39,655 bases of DNA from a virus, in UHGV virus genome UHGV-0337752. One strand, given 5' to 3'. Below are positions 67 through 39,655 of the stretch, piece after piece (within the stretch, counting starts at the first letter, position 1; every line of letters begins with the position of its first letter). A program made the translations under genes and the position numbers. The notes under the pieces were generated by a model. That model was not told where the DNA came from, made no database searches, and saw only the letters and a list, made by a program, of their open reading frames with translations.

Positions 67-249
67 TTGATTTATGACAAAATTAAAGAAATATGCGAAG
101 AAAGAGGTTTGAGTGTTAGGTCAATTGAAATCGAAGCTGGATTAAAGAATGGAGCTATTAGCAAATGGAATGATTCAAGCCCAACTGTAAAAAGCCTTAA
201 AGCGGTTGCGGATGTTTTAAAAGTCAAAGTGGACAAGCTTATTTCTTAG
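67..249 (+). CDS. XRE-family helix-turn-helix regulator (Cro/CI-type), 60 aa
   Basis: HTH_3-like segment LSVRSIEIEAGLKNGAISKW. TTG start preceded by AGAGAGGGTGA RBS. In-frame stop at 34-36 bounds the N-terminus. Confidence 0.6.
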   Translation: MIYDKIKEICEERGLSVRSIEIEAGLKNGAISKWNDSSPTVKSLKAVADVLKVKVDKLIS

Positions 250-265
250 AGTAGGAGGTGAGGTC

Positions 266-691
266 ATGAAAGCTGCATGGAATATTAATGGAATTTTTAA
301 AGCAGATGCCGAAAAAGTTTCGGATGAATTATCAGCAATTAAGTGTACACCATCCAATGTAGTAGAACATGCCAGGAATCCAAAAACAGAATTACATAAA
401 TGTTTTGAATGGAATGATTCTATAGCAGGGGAAAAATACAGAGAACATCAGGCACAACAAGTAATACGTAATCTTGTAATCATTAAGGAAGAAACAGAAG
501 AAAAAACGCCCATTAGACTCTTTTACAATACCGGAGATAGAACAGGTGAGTATAAACCTGTACAACTGGTAATGAGGAAGGAAGATGAATATAAGAACTT
601 GTTAAATAAAGCCCAGGAAGAATTAAGGGTGTTTAAAAAGAAATATCACTGTTTGACAGAGTTAGAAGAAATTCTTTCATTAATTAGTTAA
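266..691 (+). CDS. hypothetical protein, 141 aa
   Basis: Strong RBS GGAGGTGAGG 6 nt before ATG. Tightly spaced after the HTH gene. No domain recognised by eye. Confidence 0.5.
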   Translation: MKAAWNINGIFKADAEKVSDELSAIKCTPSNVVEHARNPKTELHKCFEWNDSIAGEKYREHQAQQVIRNLVIIKEETEEKTPIRLFYNTGDRTGEYKPVQLVMRKEDEYKNLLNKAQEELRVFKKKYHCLTELEEILSLIS

Positions 692-692
692 C

Positions 693-816
693 GGTAATAA
701 TTGGTCTGTTGAATTGGCAATATATTGTTTTGTCATGAACAGAAAATCGCAGAACACTACAGAACACAACACTAGAAAACAAAATATTGCCAATTCAGCA
801 GACCAACAATTACTAT
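693..816. repeat. large imperfect inverted repeat (about 30-bp arms, about 48-bp spacer)
   Basis: Left arm TAATAATTGGTCTGTTGAATTGGCAATAT and right arm ATATTGCCAATTCAGCAGACCAACAATTA are reverse complements with about 3 mismatches. Spacer contains AGAACAC twice. Confidence 0.6.
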
Positions 817-837
817 AATTTTTCTGACCGTATACAT

Positions 838-943
838 ATTGGAATTAACCAATAAAAAGTAAAAAGTGCAAAACAGAGCAAAATAATACAGCAAAATAAA
901 TTACAGCACAGAATAATAAATATTGGATATAATTCCAATATTT
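838..943. promoter_or_regulatory. two palindromic operator-like sites TATTGG-N-CCAATA, plus A-rich direct repeats
   Basis: TATTGGAATTAACCAATA at about 838-855. ATATTGGATATAATTCCAATAT at about 921-943, overlapping the first possible start of the next ORF. Three ACAG(C)AAAATAAT-like tandem units lie between them. Confidence 0.4.
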
Positions 944-1645
944 ATGCGGTCAGATATAGGAGGAAATGTGAATAAAAAAGAAGAAAACATTATAACCTTA
1001 GAGCCAATTAAAAAATGCAAAATTAAGATTGCGTTAGTAGGAGATTCGGATTTGATTTTGAATAAGAAAGCAAGGTCATATGAAGAATTGGAAATATTTA
1101 AGCAATCACATCCGAAAGGAACAAAAATTCCTAAGGAGTTGCAGCAACCTTATAACCTTTTTGAAAAATTAATTACTTCTATTACATGGGAAAATAAAAT
1201 TCCGGTGTATGATGATTATTCCATGTACACAAAAGAAATGTGGGAAGAATTAATTTATTCAAACCGTCCGTGTATTTTATCAAAAGCATTTAAGGATTCT
1301 TTTATGGAAGCGTTTATTTCTTTAGGCTATAAAGAAGCCACAAGTAGGAATGGTACAGACTTTAAACGTTCTGTCAATATTTCCAATTGGAAGAATCCAG
1401 TGGATATTACATCGGCTACATTCAGTCAGCATTTGACTCCAAACACAGGAATCACAAAAACCAATGTTATTGCTCAATACAATGTTTTTTCTGGATGGAA
1501 ATGTGAAATTGAAATATCCCACATTGATTATATATTCGCAACAGATACAGTACTTGAAATTATAAACAATGCTGGTGAGTTTATTGGAATAGGAACACGC
1601 AGAGCAGAGGGATTTGGCAGATATCATGTTGAATCAATAAATTAA
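923..1645 (+). CDS. Cas6-like RAMP-superfamily protein (putative RNA endonuclease), about 225-240 aa
   Basis: C-terminal glycine-rich loop GIGTRRAEGFGRY fits the GhGxxxxxGhG hallmark of Cas6/RAMP proteins. Its position about 20 aa from the C-terminus and the protein size match Cas6. Start is ambiguous: TTG 923, ATG 944 or GTG 968 (the last follows AGGAGG). Confidence 0.45.
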   Translation: MDIIPIFMRSDIGGNVNKKEENIITLEPIKKCKIKIALVGDSDLILNKKARSYEELEIFKQSHPKGTKIPKELQQPYNLFEKLITSITWENKIPVYDDYSMYTKEMWEELIYSNRPCILSKAFKDSFMEAFISLGYKEATSRNGTDFKRSVNISNWKNPVDITSATFSQHLTPNTGITKTNVIAQYNVFSGWKCEIEISHIDYIFATDTVLEIINNAGEFIGIGTRRAEGFGRYHVESIN

Positions 1646-2181: not shown

Positions 2182-2271
2182 GGCGGTGTGCGGTACACAG
2201 GCCCAGGTTCGATTCCTGGCATAACCATGGTGGAAAGTAAGAGGGTGCCGGTTCGACTCCGGCCGCCGCCA
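2182..2271 (+). tRNA. tRNA-like or tRNA-derived element with two T-arm/acceptor-3-prime modules (non-canonical)
   Basis: CCAGG-TTCGATT-CCTGG followed by CATAACC-A, and GCCGG-TTCGACT-CCGGC followed by CGCCGCC-A. The 5-prime GGCGGTG pairs with the terminal CGCCGCC as a 7-bp acceptor with one G-U pair. No standard D-arm or anticodon arm could be folded. Confidence 0.4.
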
Positions 2272-6583: not shown

Positions 6584-7345
6584 ATGAACTATATAGCCTT
6601 GATTAATTCTTTCTGGGATTCAGCCATCCTAAGTCCGTTATCTACAGGGCAGGTGTCGCTTTATATGGCATTATTGCATATAAACAACAGGAGCAACTGG
6701 ATAGAGTGGTTTACAGCGCCGAATCAAGTGCTTTCCGTACTGACGGGACTTTCAAGGTCAGGAATACTGAAAGCGAGAAATGAATTAAAACAAAGAGGGC
6801 TGATTGATTTTAGGGAACGTGGTACAAAGGCAACTGTCTATAAAATTACCACTATGTCAAATAGTACGCAAGATAGTAATCAAAATGGTAATCAAGACAG
6901 TGAACAAGATAGTAATCAAAATTGTGAGCAAAACAGTAGCACATTATATAAACAGAAACAAAAACAGAAACAAAAGAATATAGCTAACGCTATACAAGAA
7001 AGATATGTTTCTGATGATTGCCTGAATGACACAATCATAACTTTTGCTGAATATCGAAAATCAATCAAGGCACCAATGACCCCACATGCAATAGATTTGA
7101 TGTTAAAATCTCTTGAAGAATTAGCGCCAGGGGATGAGAAAACCAAGATAAAAATATTAAATCAATCAATTGTGAATGGATGGAAAGGAGTATTTGCCTT
7201 GAAGGATAAAGAAAAACCCATACAATCTGGTCAACCTAAAAACCAGTTCCATAATTTCGACCAGAGGGACACAGACTATGATGCATTGATGTTAAAACAG
7301 GTAAAAGGCTGGGTAGGGGAGGAACCGCATGAAGGAAATACATAA
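6584..7345 (+). CDS. phage replisome organizer / replication initiation protein
   Basis: The N-terminal segment resembles the phage replisome-organizer N-terminal winged-helix domain. The central low-complexity linker is encoded by direct DNA repeats. Confidence 0.5.
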   Translation: MNYIALINSFWDSAILSPLSTGQVSLYMALLHINNRSNWIEWFTAPNQVLSVLTGLSRSGILKARNELKQRGLIDFRERGTKATVYKITTMSNSTQDSNQNGNQDSEQDSNQNCEQNSSTLYKQKQKQKQKNIANAIQERYVSDDCLNDTIITFAEYRKSIKAPMTPHAIDLMLKSLEELAPGDEKTKIKILNQSIVNGWKGVFALKDKEKPIQSGQPKNQFHNFDQRDTDYDALMLKQVKGWVGEEPHEGNT

Positions 7346-9141: not shown

Positions 9142-10086
9142 ATGCAAAATGAACTGGTTAGAGTAAACATGGAAGAAATAACTACTCTTCCGGCAGAAAG
9201 AAAAGATGATATAAGCCAGCGGAATCAGTACATAATACAATTGTTCCTAGTAAAGAAACGTGACTTAGCGAGAGGGACCAAAGAAAACTATCTTAACGCC
9301 ATACGAAGATTGCTGACAGAGATAAGCACAAAATCACTGGACCAGATGGACACCACAGATATTGATTGGTATTTATCGCGGTATGAAATTAGAAATGTGT
9401 CCAGTGGTGGTAAGAAAAACCAACCCAGCACTTATAATAACGAGCGCCGTTTTCTGTCAGCATTCTTTACATGGATGCGACTGGAAAAATTAATTATAGA
9501 TAATCCTGTAGAACCTATACCAGCTAAAAAGGTGCCAATTAAGCCTATAGACTATTACAGTCCAGAAGAATCAGCAAGACTAAGGGATGCGTGCAAAAAT
9601 ATCCGAGAAAGGGCATTACTAGAGGTTCTGCGTAGCACTGGGGCCAGGATAGGAGAAATTGCAGAAATAACTCTTGACCAGATAGATATGAGGACGGGTG
9701 ATATATTAATACAGGGAGAAAAAGGTGGTAGGTACCGCACTATATATCTGGATGATGATGCAAGATATTATTATGGACTATATTTAGATGGTAGGAAAGA
9801 TGATTGTAAATATATGTTCCCTCGTTCAAGGAAACCCTATGGAAAAATGACTACCTGTGGTTTTCGGTCCATAATAAAATCTATAGGAAAGAGGGCTGGG
9901 CTTACATGTAGGGTTTATCCGCACAAATCTAGAAAAACATTAGGAATGAATCTCAGAAATCATGGTGTAGACATAGGGACCATACAAGAGATTTTTGGAC
10001 ATGCAAGTTCAGAGGTAACAATGAAATTTTATGCCCAGACAGATAATAGAAGATTACGTAGCATTAGGGAACGAGTTAATGTATAG
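9142..10086 (+). CDS. tyrosine recombinase / integrase
   Basis: Catalytic-domain hallmarks: GARIGEI (Arg box), HKSRKT and GHASSEVTMKFYA (H-R-H-Y region). An alternative start exists at 9169. Confidence 0.75.
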   Translation: MQNELVRVNMEEITTLPAERKDDISQRNQYIIQLFLVKKRDLARGTKENYLNAIRRLLTEISTKSLDQMDTTDIDWYLSRYEIRNVSSGGKKNQPSTYNNERRFLSAFFTWMRLEKLIIDNPVEPIPAKKVPIKPIDYYSPEESARLRDACKNIRERALLEVLRSTGARIGEIAEITLDQIDMRTGDILIQGEKGGRYRTIYLDDDARYYYGLYLDGRKDDCKYMFPRSRKPYGKMTTCGFRSIIKSIGKRAGLTCRVYPHKSRKTLGMNLRNHGVDIGTIQEIFGHASSEVTMKFYAQTDNRRLRSIRERVNV

Positions 10087-20926: not shown

Positions 20927-21171
20927 AGCCAGTCGCCAGTCGCAGAGCCATACAGATTACAGCAATGTAGTTTGTGTGGCTTTTTCTTATATTTGACCTC
21001 CCTCCTATAGCACATGTCCTTAAAAGAAACAGGTTCTAGCGCATAGCGTGAACAGCCTGGAGGTTGAAAAGCGGATGCAATTTCCGACATGTGCGTTACC
21101 CCGCCCGTGGTCCATCGGGCTTAATCCATACCTGCGGCGGCAGGTCAATAAACACGACCAGGAGGATAATT

Positions 21172-21810
21172 ATGCAGAAACTTATTGAAACATTGAAATC
21201 ATTTGGAATTGAGATTCCAGAGGACAAACAGTCAGATGTGAAAAAGGTATTGTCGGAACATTATAAGAATGCTGCGGAATACAATAAGGCCATATCAAAA
21301 CTGGAAACTGACCGGGATACCTGGAAAGAGAAAGCAGAAGCAGCCGAAACTACGCTGAAAGGCTTTGAAGGGGTTGACCTGGAGACGATGCAGAAAGAAC
21401 TGTCTGACTGGAAACAGAAAGCTACAGAAGCTGAAAAGAACGCCCAGGCACAGATTTATGAACGCGATTTTGCGGATGCGCTTAAAGCAGAATTTGAAGG
21501 GATTAAATTTTCTAGTGAGGCGGCTAAACGTGCAATCATGACAGAAGTAAAAGAGGCCGGTCTGAAATTAAAAGACGGTAAAATCCTGGGGCTGAATGAC
21601 CTTATAGGCCAGATGAAAGAAAAGGATGCTTCGGCATTTGTTGATGATGCGCAGCAGCAAATACAGCAGAACATGGCAAGGTTTACTGCTCCTAAAAAAA
21701 CGGGTAGTTCTGGCACCATGAATAAAGATGAGATTATGGCTATCAAGGACCGAAGTGAACGGCGCGCGGCAATAGCTCAAAACATGCATTTATTTGAAGG
21801 AGAAAAATAA
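21172..21810 (+). CDS. scaffolding protein
   Basis: RBS GGAGGATAAT before ATG 21172. Alpha-helical, charged, coiled-coil-like. Immediately upstream of the major capsid gene. Confidence 0.5.
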   Translation: MQKLIETLKSFGIEIPEDKQSDVKKVLSEHYKNAAEYNKAISKLETDRDTWKEKAEAAETTLKGFEGVDLETMQKELSDWKQKATEAEKNAQAQIYERDFADALKAEFEGIKFSSEAAKRAIMTEVKEAGLKLKDGKILGLNDLIGQMKEKDASAFVDDAQQQIQQNMARFTAPKKTGSSGTMNKDEIMAIKDRSERRAAIAQNMHLFEGEK

Positions 21811-35986: not shown

Positions 35987-37060
35987 TTACATGCTGTTCA
36001 GTTTTTCAAAGTGCTTATTGATTTTTTTATTCTGCCGGACAGATTCCAGGTCAATTACATTTCTGTATACAGTTTTCATGATATTGTCACTGGCCCATCC
36101 TCCCCGCTGTAAAATATACTGGTCTGGTATCCCTATAGCGTGCATAATGGATGCGGCATAATGCCTGAGGTCGTGGAATCTAAAGTGTGGTATATCAATC
36201 TTTTTAAGTACTCGCCCAAATCTGTGTGTGATGTAATCTGGATTCATATCAACCAGCTTTCCCTTCTTGCCAGATATTCGGTCAATTACAAATGCTGGCA
36301 TTTCTACGTCCCGTGTACTATCATCCGTTTTAGGCTGCTTAATATACCACTGATTGTCTGGCCCCTTGACCATATTGTCTCTTACATGGATAATATGCCC
36401 TTCTACGTTCTTGTATGTCAGGGCGCTTATTTCTCCTCGCCTGAGTGGTCCAAAGGCTGCTAATAATACAGCTATCTCTAAATCAGTACCCTTGATTGCA
36501 TCCAGCAGCTTTTTAATATCGTTGTCGTTTGGGCAGTATAGGTCGGGACGTTTTTTCTGGGGAAGCTTAACTTTTAGAGTTAAATCCGGCGCAAACATTT
36601 CCAATGATGCGGATAATAGTCCATAAGCATTTCTGACTGTCTTTGGAGACAATTTTTTTGCAGCCAAATTACTTACCCATATCTGTACAGATGGATTTGT
36701 TAGCCCTGAGAGCCGTTTCCGCCCAAATGCGCCGCTGAAATACTGTCTTTGCAGACCACGGTACCCTCTGAGCGTAGAAGGGCTTAAAACGCCGCTCTTG
36801 ACGTTTAAATAACGTTCAATAGCATCGTTGACCGTGATATCTTCGTCCTCGTCCTCGTCCGGTTCATTGTATTGCTCGATAGGCTTATCCTTCATATCTA
36901 ATTTCCATCTGGTAGCCATGTCCTTAGCTTTCTTATGTGACGTCGCTACAAAGCTTTTGTAATGCCGTTTTCCTTTTTCATCCGTGTATAGATATAGCTG
37001 ATACCGAACGTTACCAGACGGCAGTTCTCCTGTTTTCTTTTTCGGGGCTTTTTTGGTCAT
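35987..37060 (-). CDS. tyrosine integrase
   Basis: ATG (MTKKAPKKK...) preceded by GAAGGAGGAAGAAAA. Catalytic motifs LRRGEI, HDLRHYAAS and GGWAS...MKTVYRNV. Track ORF is extended upstream to 37129. Confidence 0.8.
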   Translation of the reverse strand: MTKKAPKKKTGELPSGNVRYQLYLYTDEKGKRHYKSFVATSHKKAKDMATRWKLDMKDKPIEQYNEPDEDEDEDITVNDAIERYLNVKSGVLSPSTLRGYRGLQRQYFSGAFGRKRLSGLTNPSVQIWVSNLAAKKLSPKTVRNAYGLLSASLEMFAPDLTLKVKLPQKKRPDLYCPNDNDIKKLLDAIKGTDLEIAVLLAAFGPLRRGEISALTYKNVEGHIIHVRDNMVKGPDNQWYIKQPKTDDSTRDVEMPAFVIDRISGKKGKLVDMNPDYITHRFGRVLKKIDIPHFRFHDLRHYAASIMHAIGIPDQYILQRGGWASDNIMKTVYRNVIDLESVRQNKKINKHFEKLNSM

Positions 37061-37112
37061 TTTTCTTCCTCCTTCATTAATTTTCCTAAAAATAGGTATA
37101 AAAAATACAGCT

Positions 37113-37245
37113 CCGCAAACATCTTGCAAAGCCGCCCCGAAGATGGTACAATATAGGTGCGATTATAGTGCATATCTTCGGGTATGTAGGCCGGTTCCTG
37201 TTGGCGCAGGGGCCGGCTTTTACTTATTTCAAACCAAATTGCGCT
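37113..37245 (+). ncRNA. candidate small RNA: promoter plus about 70-nt transcribed region plus terminator
   Basis: TTGCAA-N17-TGGTACAAT (extended -10) at about 37120-37158. A GC-rich hairpin GGCCGGTTCCTG...CAGGGGCCGG followed by CTTTTACTTATTT at about 37188-37232. No plausible ORF. Confidence 0.3.
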
Positions 37246-38650: not shown

Positions 38651-39076
38651 CTATCTCCATTCTTTAAATTCAAAAAGTTTTTCTCTGTATCCTGTTAAAC
38701 AGGAAAGTTGCTTTTTATTTAATCCTGGGTTTTCTAATATAGTAGTATCCGGTATCAGTAGCTCCGCAGCAAAAATATTTGCTTCTTGCTCTGGCCTTGC
38801 TTTACTAAAAAAAGTTCCTCCAAAAAACATACATTCAGTACCTTTGTGTAGCACATTGTGCCCAACTTCGTGAGCTAAGACTATATTACTGTATTTTATA
38901 TCTGTTATGCGGGAATTGATGCATATACATGATATTCCTTCGTATTCTATGTAATAGCCTGAGTTTTTTCCCAGGTCATGCTTTTGTACGATAATCCCTA
39001 AATAATCTGCGAGTTCCCAGGGATTCCTGGTTCCGTATTTTTCAACCAGATTCAAAACAGTATCTTTAATCTCCAA
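38651..39076 (-). CDS. ImmA/IrrE-family metallopeptidase
   Basis: HEXXH motif LAHEVGHNVLH. Lies immediately downstream of and coupled to the XRE repressor gene. Confidence 0.7.
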   Translation of the reverse strand: MEIKDTVLNLVEKYGTRNPWELADYLGIIVQKHDLGKNSGYYIEYEGISCICINSRITDIKYSNIVLAHEVGHNVLHKGTECMFFGGTFFSKARPEQEANIFAAELLIPDTTILENPGLNKKQLSCLTGYREKLFEFKEWR

Positions 39077-39079
39077 TCG

Positions 39080-39502
39080 CTACTCTCCAAAGCCTTCCTG
39101 CTTTTTCTTAATCTTAGCTGCCCTACAAAGTGATAACAGTGAGTCTCTTAATAATTTATCCTCATCTTCATCCCCTGAGTAATCCTCGCCGTTAAATCGT
39201 AGTACAACCGTTTCGTTGTTCCTTATGCGCTTCATAATCTCGTCAACATCATTAATTACATTAAGCTCTTCCGTGTTAGAAAGAGTGGGCTTCTTTTCTT
39301 CTGGGGATTCCTCCTTCCCATTCATTAAGTAATCAACAGTTACTCCAAAGAAATCAGCAAGTTTTTGCAATCTCTCCGGTGTAGGAGTGCTGTTTTTCCA
39401 TTTAGAAACAGAACCATTAGAAAAACCCAGCTCCTTTTCTAGTTTTCCTTGCGAAAGCCCAGTGGATTTTCTTAAGCTTTCAATCCGCTCATATACGGTC
39501 AT
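39080..39502 (-). CDS. XRE-family repressor (ImmR/CI-like)
   Basis: ATG (MTVYERIESLRKSTGLSQGKLEKELGFSNGSVSKWKN) preceded by AAAGGAG. HTH_3 N-terminus with acidic C-terminal domain. Track ORF is extended to 39538. Confidence 0.7.
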   Translation of the reverse strand: MTVYERIESLRKSTGLSQGKLEKELGFSNGSVSKWKNSTPTPERLQKLADFFGVTVDYLMNGKEESPEEKKPTLSNTEELNVINDVDEIMKRIRNNETVVLRFNGEDYSGDEDEDKLLRDSLLSLCRAAKIKKKQEGFGE

Positions 39503-39520
39503 ATAACTCCTTTCTAATCC

Positions 39521-39591
39521 ACAGAAAAAATTCTGCAAAAAAAGCTTGACAATTAGAAAGAGTTCTGTATAATAGAGATATAGATACAGAA
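39521..39591. promoter_or_regulatory. operator-like palindromes TTCTGTAT-N13-ATACAGAA and CAGAA-AAAA-TTCTG
   Basis: 8-bp perfect inverted repeat straddling the -10 at about 39563-39591. A related half-site palindrome lies at about 39522-39535. Confidence 0.4.
39546..39573 (+). promoter_or_regulatory. strong sigma-A-type promoter TTGACA-N16-TATAAT directed rightward out of the window
   Basis: Consensus -35 and -10 hexamers. Divergent from the repressor gene. Confidence 0.5.
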
Positions 39592-39655
39592 AACTTTCGG
39601 TAAAACTTAATGGGTACAGATATTTTTCTAATAAATTGTGTGGTAACTTTATATT

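Follow-up and report, generated by a model that had tools for sequence, protein, structure and literature searches.

The 39,655-nt virus genome UHGV-0337752, analysed in full and called the window below, very likely carries a VIPR (Viral Interference Programmable Repeat) module at positions 266-1645, made up of a 141-aa candidate accessory gene, two guide-RNA genes and vipr, which encodes a small RAMP protein. VIPR systems were described in 2026 as viral RNA-guided DNA binders that are possibly older than CRISPR. In these systems Vipr, a phage-encoded minimal RAMP, binds vrRNAs of 9-16 YNNGG units and is usually accompanied by one accessory gene, vap. One protomer occupies each unit, with the GGY triplet flipped out and held by the G-loop, the thumb and helix 1, while the NN dinucleotide reads double-stranded DNA with one base skipped per unit, resulting in repression of transcription. 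The natural targets are rival phages, prophages and satellites, and mostly lie in host genomes (10.64898/2026.04.26.720920; 10.64898/2026.04.26.720927). What we observe in the window and its relatives is homology to Vipr together with the corresponding fold, vipr-linked and co-oriented tracts of 5-nt units in which a hypervariable NN stands beside a conserved ACA, conserved stems around these tracts, and a 141-aa neighbour. We propose that a temperate gut phage most likely possesses a small RNA-guided system that would silence rival DNA.

The RAMP protein belongs to the Vipr lineage

The original prediction, made from the raw sequence, described a solo Cas6-like RAMP gene next to a hairpin-forming repeat, and in doing so picked out a real solo RAMP plus its probable RNA partner. 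The three plus-strand open reading frames that it listed (67-249, 266-691 and 923-1645) are all present. The start of the third has to be moved, as the 240-aa product beginning at TTG 923 is an artefact of mechanical open-reading-frame calling; the true product has 225 aa and is encoded by vipr at 968-1645 on the plus strand. We place the start at 968 because a ribosome-binding site read from the sequence, AGGAGG at 958-963 (plus strand), which is invariant in the relatives, precedes a GTG at 968, the codon where close relatives carry ATG.

The glycine-rich loop from which a RAMP was first suspected is a genuine RAMP G-loop. This loop, GIGTRRAEGFGRY, is encoded at 1586-1624 and comprises residues 207-219; G203, G207, G209 and G217 are invariant in 52 homologs, and the loop aligns with the G-loop of the Vipr protein of Escherichia phage SUSP1, with weak matches to Csx10 and Cas5 profiles. 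It ends six residues from the C-terminus, not about 20 as had been stated.

A phmmer search of PDB sequences returned a single marginal match, the SUSP1 Vipr protein (36pp_D, E 0.1). Homologs at E <= 1e-3 number 205, nearly all of them unnamed metagenomic proteins of 220-240 aa, and a profile of the 52 that were aligned (A1) recovers the same chain from the PDB by hmmsearch at E 5.6e-7, over profile positions 110-226; SUSP1 Vipr is the only significant sequence relative with a solved structure. Aligned to it with hhalign, the family scores a probability of 94% and an E of 1.5e-7 over 139 columns. Against 1.84 billion representative proteins the A1 profile has 580 matches at E <= 1e-3, among them two proteins (P0356 and P0378) whose own matches to SUSP1 Vipr are at about 1e-36. 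Pfam and NCBIfam models, which are uninformative alone, found only a helix-turn-helix (HTH) domain and a weak Csx10 match at the G-loop when run on the three proteins, and a tblastn search of 50,697 deposited phage genomes with Vipr as the query gave no match.

The AlphaFold (AF2) model of the vipr product (pLDDT 94, pTM 0.85) shows a single RRM core with a thumb hairpin at about residues 149-175. Its best Foldseek matches in the PDB are type III Csm/Cmr and type VII chains, including S. epidermidis Csm3 and Cmr1, with E values of 6e-7 to 4e-4, TM about 0.5 and sequence identity of 10-15%; the library searched extended to 2026-04-08, and the Vipr structure was not among the returned matches. 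Because the profile and hhalign searches lead to SUSP1 Vipr and the fold matches are to Csm, Cmr and type VII chains, we conclude that the vipr product is a RAMP of the Cas7-like Vipr lineage and not a Cas6. With the Cas7-family backbones (Csm3/Cmr4 and type VII Cas7), its best structural matches, it shares the RRM core, the thumb beta-hairpin and the G-loop, and these backbones offer a further likeness in binding RNA as a filament with periodic base flipping. It differs from them in lacking Cas10, Cas5, Cas11 and Cas6 partners and CRISPR repeats, and in its period, which would be 5 nt here (three flipped, two read) and is 6 nt in Cas7 (one flipped, five read).

Cas6 typically has two RRM/ferredoxin-like domains. 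A solo Cas6-like endoribonuclease, as originally predicted, would cleave the transcript of the upstream palindrome or host crRNA precursors, with a small RNA, mRNA processing or a CRISPR decoy as the outcome. Such an enzyme would share with the vipr product a RAMP fold with a C-terminal G-loop of the form GhGxxxxxGhG; long hairpins do lie directly upstream of the gene, and the PADLOC Cas6 profile gives a weak match, at E 0.019 only. The model nonetheless has one RRM core and a thumb, as in Cas7/Csm3, no Cas6 is described among the top 50 Foldseek matches, and the significant sequence homology is to Vipr, a filament RNA binder for which cleavage is not reported. There is also no CRISPR repeat to serve as a substrate, and it is the 5-nt tract, not any given stem sequence, that is conserved across loci. 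We regard a Cas6-like nuclease as very improbable. The description of the gene as a stand-alone RAMP outside any CRISPR-Cas locus holds, since profile and model both show a RAMP fold, no CRISPR array was found in the window, and there are no cas genes among the open reading frames scanned.

Pentanucleotide tracts enclosed in hairpins

Between the 141-aa gene and vipr lie two plus-strand tracts of 5-nt units that we propose as the guides. The vrRNA1 tract (737-786) comprises eight loop and two stem units, GAACA GAAAA TCGCA GAACA CTACA GAACA CAACA CTAGA AAACA AAATA. The vrRNA2 tract (866-920), GTGCA AAACA GAGCA AAATA ATACA GCAAA ATAAA TTACA GCACA GAATA ATAAA, is more degenerate, with an in-register CA in 6/10 units. 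A scan of both strands of the 39.6 kb required an in-register CA in six or more of ten successive 5-nt units, and the two hairpin loops are the only sites that pass on either strand. Comparison with dinucleotide shuffles gives P < 2e-4 for the vrRNA1 tract and P = 0.0012 for the vrRNA2 tract, and Tandem Repeats Finder reports a period of 15 at both. A Fourier-type period-5 scan of positions 1-2600 has no clear peak, the signal appearing only in the motif-in-register test. As a positive control, a YNNGG scan of phage SUSP1 recovered the published tracts, one of them upstream and three downstream of vipr and all four in its orientation.

The link between tract and gene is not confined to the window. 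In 64 related loci the scan yields 88 tract calls, representing 68 unique tracts, each of them on the strand that encodes vipr and none on the opposite strand. The majority, at one to six per locus, are located between vipr and the 141-aa gene, and a few just downstream of vipr. In a logo of 692 units, positions 1-2 vary and include each of the 16 dinucleotides, position 3 is A in 72%, G in 15% and T in 11%, and positions 4-5 are C in 85% and A in 90%, the last two values being raised partly by selection. In nine phages whose Vipr proteins share 98-99% identity, mean tract identity is 53-66% and the lowest value 28%. Among close relatives the vrRNA1 tract has 66% mean identity against 84-89% for its arms, and the vrRNA2 tract 53% against 85-97%, and tract length differences are mostly multiples of 5 nt.

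Each tract is presented by a long hairpin on the plus strand. The vrRNA1 hairpin (694-813) has arms of 38 nt at 694-731 and 776-813, 89% complementary, around a 44-nt loop, and folds with a minimum free energy of -46.2 kcal/mol (z = -10.4) and with the loop unpaired. The vrRNA2 hairpin (823-954) has 25-nt arms at 823-847 and 930-954, 92% complementary, with further pairing of 849-854 to 921-926, and folds at -40.5 kcal/mol (z = -9.7). Seven distinct close relatives show compensatory changes at six pairs of the vrRNA1 stem; the vrRNA2 stem is 100% paired in relatives, with two compensatory pairs. Taking both stems together, there are eight compensatory changes, and 94% of cells are paired as compared with 30-42% when the partners are slid. 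The 125-bp palindrome of the original prediction is thus present, but it spans 694-813 and is one of two hairpins. Likewise, the two TATTGG..CCAATA dyads, at 838-853 and 922-939 and nowhere else in the window, are real as sequences, but they form inner parts of the vrRNA2 hairpin, and the reading of them as operators is not supported.

Could the palindromes instead be DNA-level elements, such as Cro/cI operators, a replication origin or recombination sites, that stand beside a RAMP gene by coincidence? The dyads are operator-like, the early region is AT-rich, and a cI/cro module is adjacent. The dyads are absent, however, from the cI-cro intergenic region, the expected place of operators, and in two relatives (L001 and L004) the hairpins and vipr are retained together with a different immunity module. 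From one clade to another the stem sequences differ fully, but the period of the loop is kept and so is the association with vipr. The excess of G.T over A.C mismatches described below points to selection on RNA. We consider coincidence of this kind a shade less probable even than a Cas6-like nuclease. The VIPR reading keeps one half of what was predicted for the palindrome: it is most likely an RNA partner of the RAMP, but its stem probably does not serve as a nuclease substrate, and Vipr probably polymerises along the pentanucleotide repeats of the loop.

At the hairpins of the window and of 13 related loci, Rfam detected neither a hammerhead nor another known family, its only matches there being spurious ones to miRNA-precursor models, and ribozymes therefore do not settle which strand is transcribed. 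No conserved motif flanks the tracts across clades. In three relatives (L009, L011 and L013), about 400 nt upstream of vipr, guide tracts occur in 4-unit arrays, each tract bracketed by the same pair of small hairpins, CATCCACC..GGTGGATG and TCTGC..GCAGA, plus an GTAGGGGAACA/TGTTTCCCTAC stem; these arrays likewise contain no hammerhead or other Rfam family, L009 having been scanned at the gathering threshold only.

The guide strand and the constant triplet

Several sequence features indicate that the guide RNA is likely to lie on the plus strand, that of vipr. In 35 unique flanking stems read on the vipr strand there are 90 G.T and 37 A.C mismatches, with G.T exceeding A.C in 26 stems and the reverse in two (sign test p = 3e-6); this excess is the signature of G.U pairs in plus-strand RNA. 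The A/C-rich loops of the plus strand stay unpaired, and the U/G-rich loops of the minus strand self-pair. A candidate promoter, TTGCCA-18-TACTAT (787-816, a consensus match inside the vrRNA1 right arm), and a T-run read from the sequence, TAATTTTTCT (about 814-822, directly past the vrRNA1 stem), to which we tentatively ascribe a function, are found on the plus strand only.

The same VIPR system could in principle use guides transcribed from the minus strand, antisense to vipr, with a unit UGY-NN that would be a mild variant of GGY-NN. The minus-strand logo, with U at 90%, G at 85% and Y at 87%, keeps G2 and Y3 of the GGY motif. Vipr reads Y3 with a purine-excluding pocket, and R179, which stacks on Y3 in SUSP1, is conserved as R212; the alternative consensus forms in 10.64898/2026.04.26.720920 all end in G, and good folds are obtained on the minus strand too (z = -9.3 and -7.6). 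On that strand, however, the stems would hold 90 A.C against 37 G.U and the loops would self-pair, and no promoter-like site is found near 820-1000. Each of the 88 tract calls, upstream or downstream, has the orientation of vipr, and the SUSP1 RNAs are sense likewise. We judge minus-strand guides unlikely, and retain the plus strand in what follows.

Seven types of VIPR are recognised, some with the unit consensus NNNGG, YNNNG or NNNNG (10.64898/2026.04.26.720920). The SUSP1 system (type II; PDB 36pp) is the closest point of comparison, and the two agree in most of their architecture: both encode a small RAMP, homologous by profile, that has one RRM, a G-loop and a thumb; beside the gene and in its orientation lie tracts of about 8-13 units of 5 nt, in which three positions are constant and two hypervariable; a single small gene, here a candidate accessory gene, is adjacent; and both are found in phages, without cas genes or a CRISPR array. 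They differ in that the triplet is ACA here (UGY on the other strand) and GGY in SUSP1, and in that both tract flanks pair into a 25-38-bp stem here, whereas the SUSP1 RNA has a 5' hairpin and a 3' pseudoknotted tail. The candidate accessory gene is upstream here and unrelated in sequence to vap1, and the host is a Gram-positive gut anaerobe carrying a temperate phage.

A number of results weigh against the assignment to VIPR or against a plus-strand guide. The constant motif GGY (unit YNNGG) is absent, the window containing no YNNGG or NNNGG runs; the unit is NN-ACA on the vipr strand, which fits none of the published consensus forms, and UGY-NN on the other, which is closer to GGY-NN and fits the 'YNNNG' class, in conflict with the strand evidence. 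In SUSP1, D177, W178 and R138 contact the two guanines, and the Y3 pocket excludes purines (10.64898/2026.04.26.720927); the three contact residues are T210, R211 and N172 here. No similarity to SUSP1 vap1 is detectable in the 141-aa protein, which has no Foldseek match and a weak fold assignment. Searches for targets were also negative. Perfect 10-unit NNx patterns of vrRNA1, vrRNA2 and the guides of two relatives, and the 9-unit pattern of a third (the relatives being L007, L025 and L013, five guides in all), had 0 matches in IMG/VR. An 8-unit vrRNA1 pattern had 34 matches there, about the number expected by chance on a rough estimate, and these fall on acidic-peptide codons in unrelated, mostly high-GC contigs. 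A local all-against-all comparison with skips of 0-3 showed no preference for a 1-nt skip, in a database of only about 0.3 Mb. With no DNA target found, function is therefore assigned by homology.

The replacement of D/W/R by T/R/N bears on the triplet itself. Recognition chemistry is consequently not simply transferable from SUSP1, and an altered triplet is to be expected on either reading of the strand. We consider, at somewhat less than even odds, that this clade uses another RNA code, with a sense-strand guide, ACA in place of GGY, a Vipr in which D/W/R has become T/R/N, and the tract displayed as the loop of a 25-38-bp hairpin. If so, the GGY scaffold would not be essential to the mechanism, Vipr filaments could be retuned to other scaffold triplets to give orthogonal programmable DNA binders, and a distinct maturation route would be implied, for example cleavage by a double-strand-specific RNase. 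The locus may represent a variant beyond the seven published types, provided that a sense-strand ACA scaffold and hairpin-enclosed guides are not among them. Among representatives of the Vipr superfamily (P0241-P0390), SUSP1-like proteins have DWR or EWR as the three residues after GxG, this clade has T/S-R/Q-R, and a further group has SGR. These G-loop residue classes may track the constant triplet of each clade.

Phage context and proposed mechanism

The end of the window (39000-39655) and its start (1-400) are contiguous in three relatives (L005, L019 and L021; 98% over 1,055 bp), and the window is therefore a circular permutation. Once it is circularised, a cI-like repressor gene (39080-39538, minus strand) lies just upstream of, and faces, a 60-aa Cro/C1-type HTH gene (67-249, plus strand; Pfam HTH_3, E 3.6e-5; PHROG 8), with a perfect TTGACA-16-TATAAT promoter match upstream of the latter at 39546-39573 (plus strand). 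The repressor and promoter place the module in the early rightward operon of a temperate phage, in agreement with the early-operon position first suggested for the RAMP gene. The phage also encodes an integrase, portal and tape-measure protein; two genes, at 9142-10086 (plus strand) and 35987-37129 (minus strand), match PHROG integrase families. Relatives are present in IMG/VR; the only match in a collection of species-representative genomes is a contig of an uncultured Dorea sp., and we take the host to be a Dorea-like member of the Lachnospiraceae.

The HTH gene is the first of the operon, and its homolog adjoins vipr in seven of the 64 loci, all close relatives. The candidate vipr-accessory protein (vap) gene at 266-691 (plus strand; PHROG 15946, function unknown) is a far more constant companion: a homolog of this one small accessory-type gene is found upstream of vipr and in its orientation in 51/64 loci, and the 13 without a match all have less than about 1 kb of sequence upstream. 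Its 141-aa product has no match in Pfam or among PDB sequences. Of the three-gene layout that had been put forward, the association of the 141-aa gene with vipr thus stands and that of the HTH gene does not, and the analogy drawn with acr-aca loci falls with it. L001 and L004 share the 141-aa gene, both hairpins and vipr with the window but not the cI/cro region. We conclude that the VIPR module behaves as a mosaic unit and moves without the immunity module.

Three elements elsewhere in the window deserve mention in their own right. In the structural-gene region, an Rfam RAGATH-21 RNA is matched over its full length at 21009-21095 (plus strand; 83.8 bits, gathering score 70.3) and overlaps the start of the open reading frame 21064-21810. 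A tRNA-like element at 2182-2271 (plus strand) has two GGTTCGAxTCC T-arm-like motifs and a CCA-like end; it scores 26 bits with the Rfam tRNA model, just below the gathering score of 29, and is not called by ARAGORN. Possible identities are a degenerate tRNA, a tRNA with an intron, or an attP copy of the end of a host tRNA. A 12-nt tandem repeat (also 24/36-nt) of CAAGATAGTAAT-like sequence at 6857-6938 (plus strand) lies within the open reading frame 6584-7345 and therefore encodes a short peptide repeat.

We propose that the early operon is transcribed rightward from the strong promoter beside the cI-like repressor gene, and perhaps also from the candidate promoter inside the first hairpin. 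Each hairpin (694-813 and 823-954) would then present an unpaired A/C-rich loop of about 8-11 NN-ACA units; as in the homologous SUSP1 system, each unit would be bound by a single Vipr protomer of 25 kDa. The constant triplet is expected to be held flipped out by the G-loop, helix 1 and the thumb, so that the filament displays the variable NN. Together these dinucleotides would read double-stranded DNA discontinuously, following the SUSP1 rule NNx, with one target base skipped per unit. Binding to DNA would keep the target, most likely a rival phage, prophage or satellite, from being transcribed, and the 141-aa protein would assist at the DNA. Expression of the RNA, the strand transcribed, filament assembly, the skip rule, DNA silencing and the nature of the target are the steps that we infer here from the known systems and the sequence.

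A 25-kDa protein with an RNA of roughly 100 nt is a possible source of an orthogonal, small programmable DNA-binding tool. Because the ACA/UGY scaffold and the hairpin-enclosed guides are unlike those of GGY systems, the clade offers a natural test of triplet recognition. These findings also place VIPR right after the lysis-lysogeny switch of a temperate phage whose host is a common Firmicute of the human gut, a location that fits a role in phage-phage conflict.

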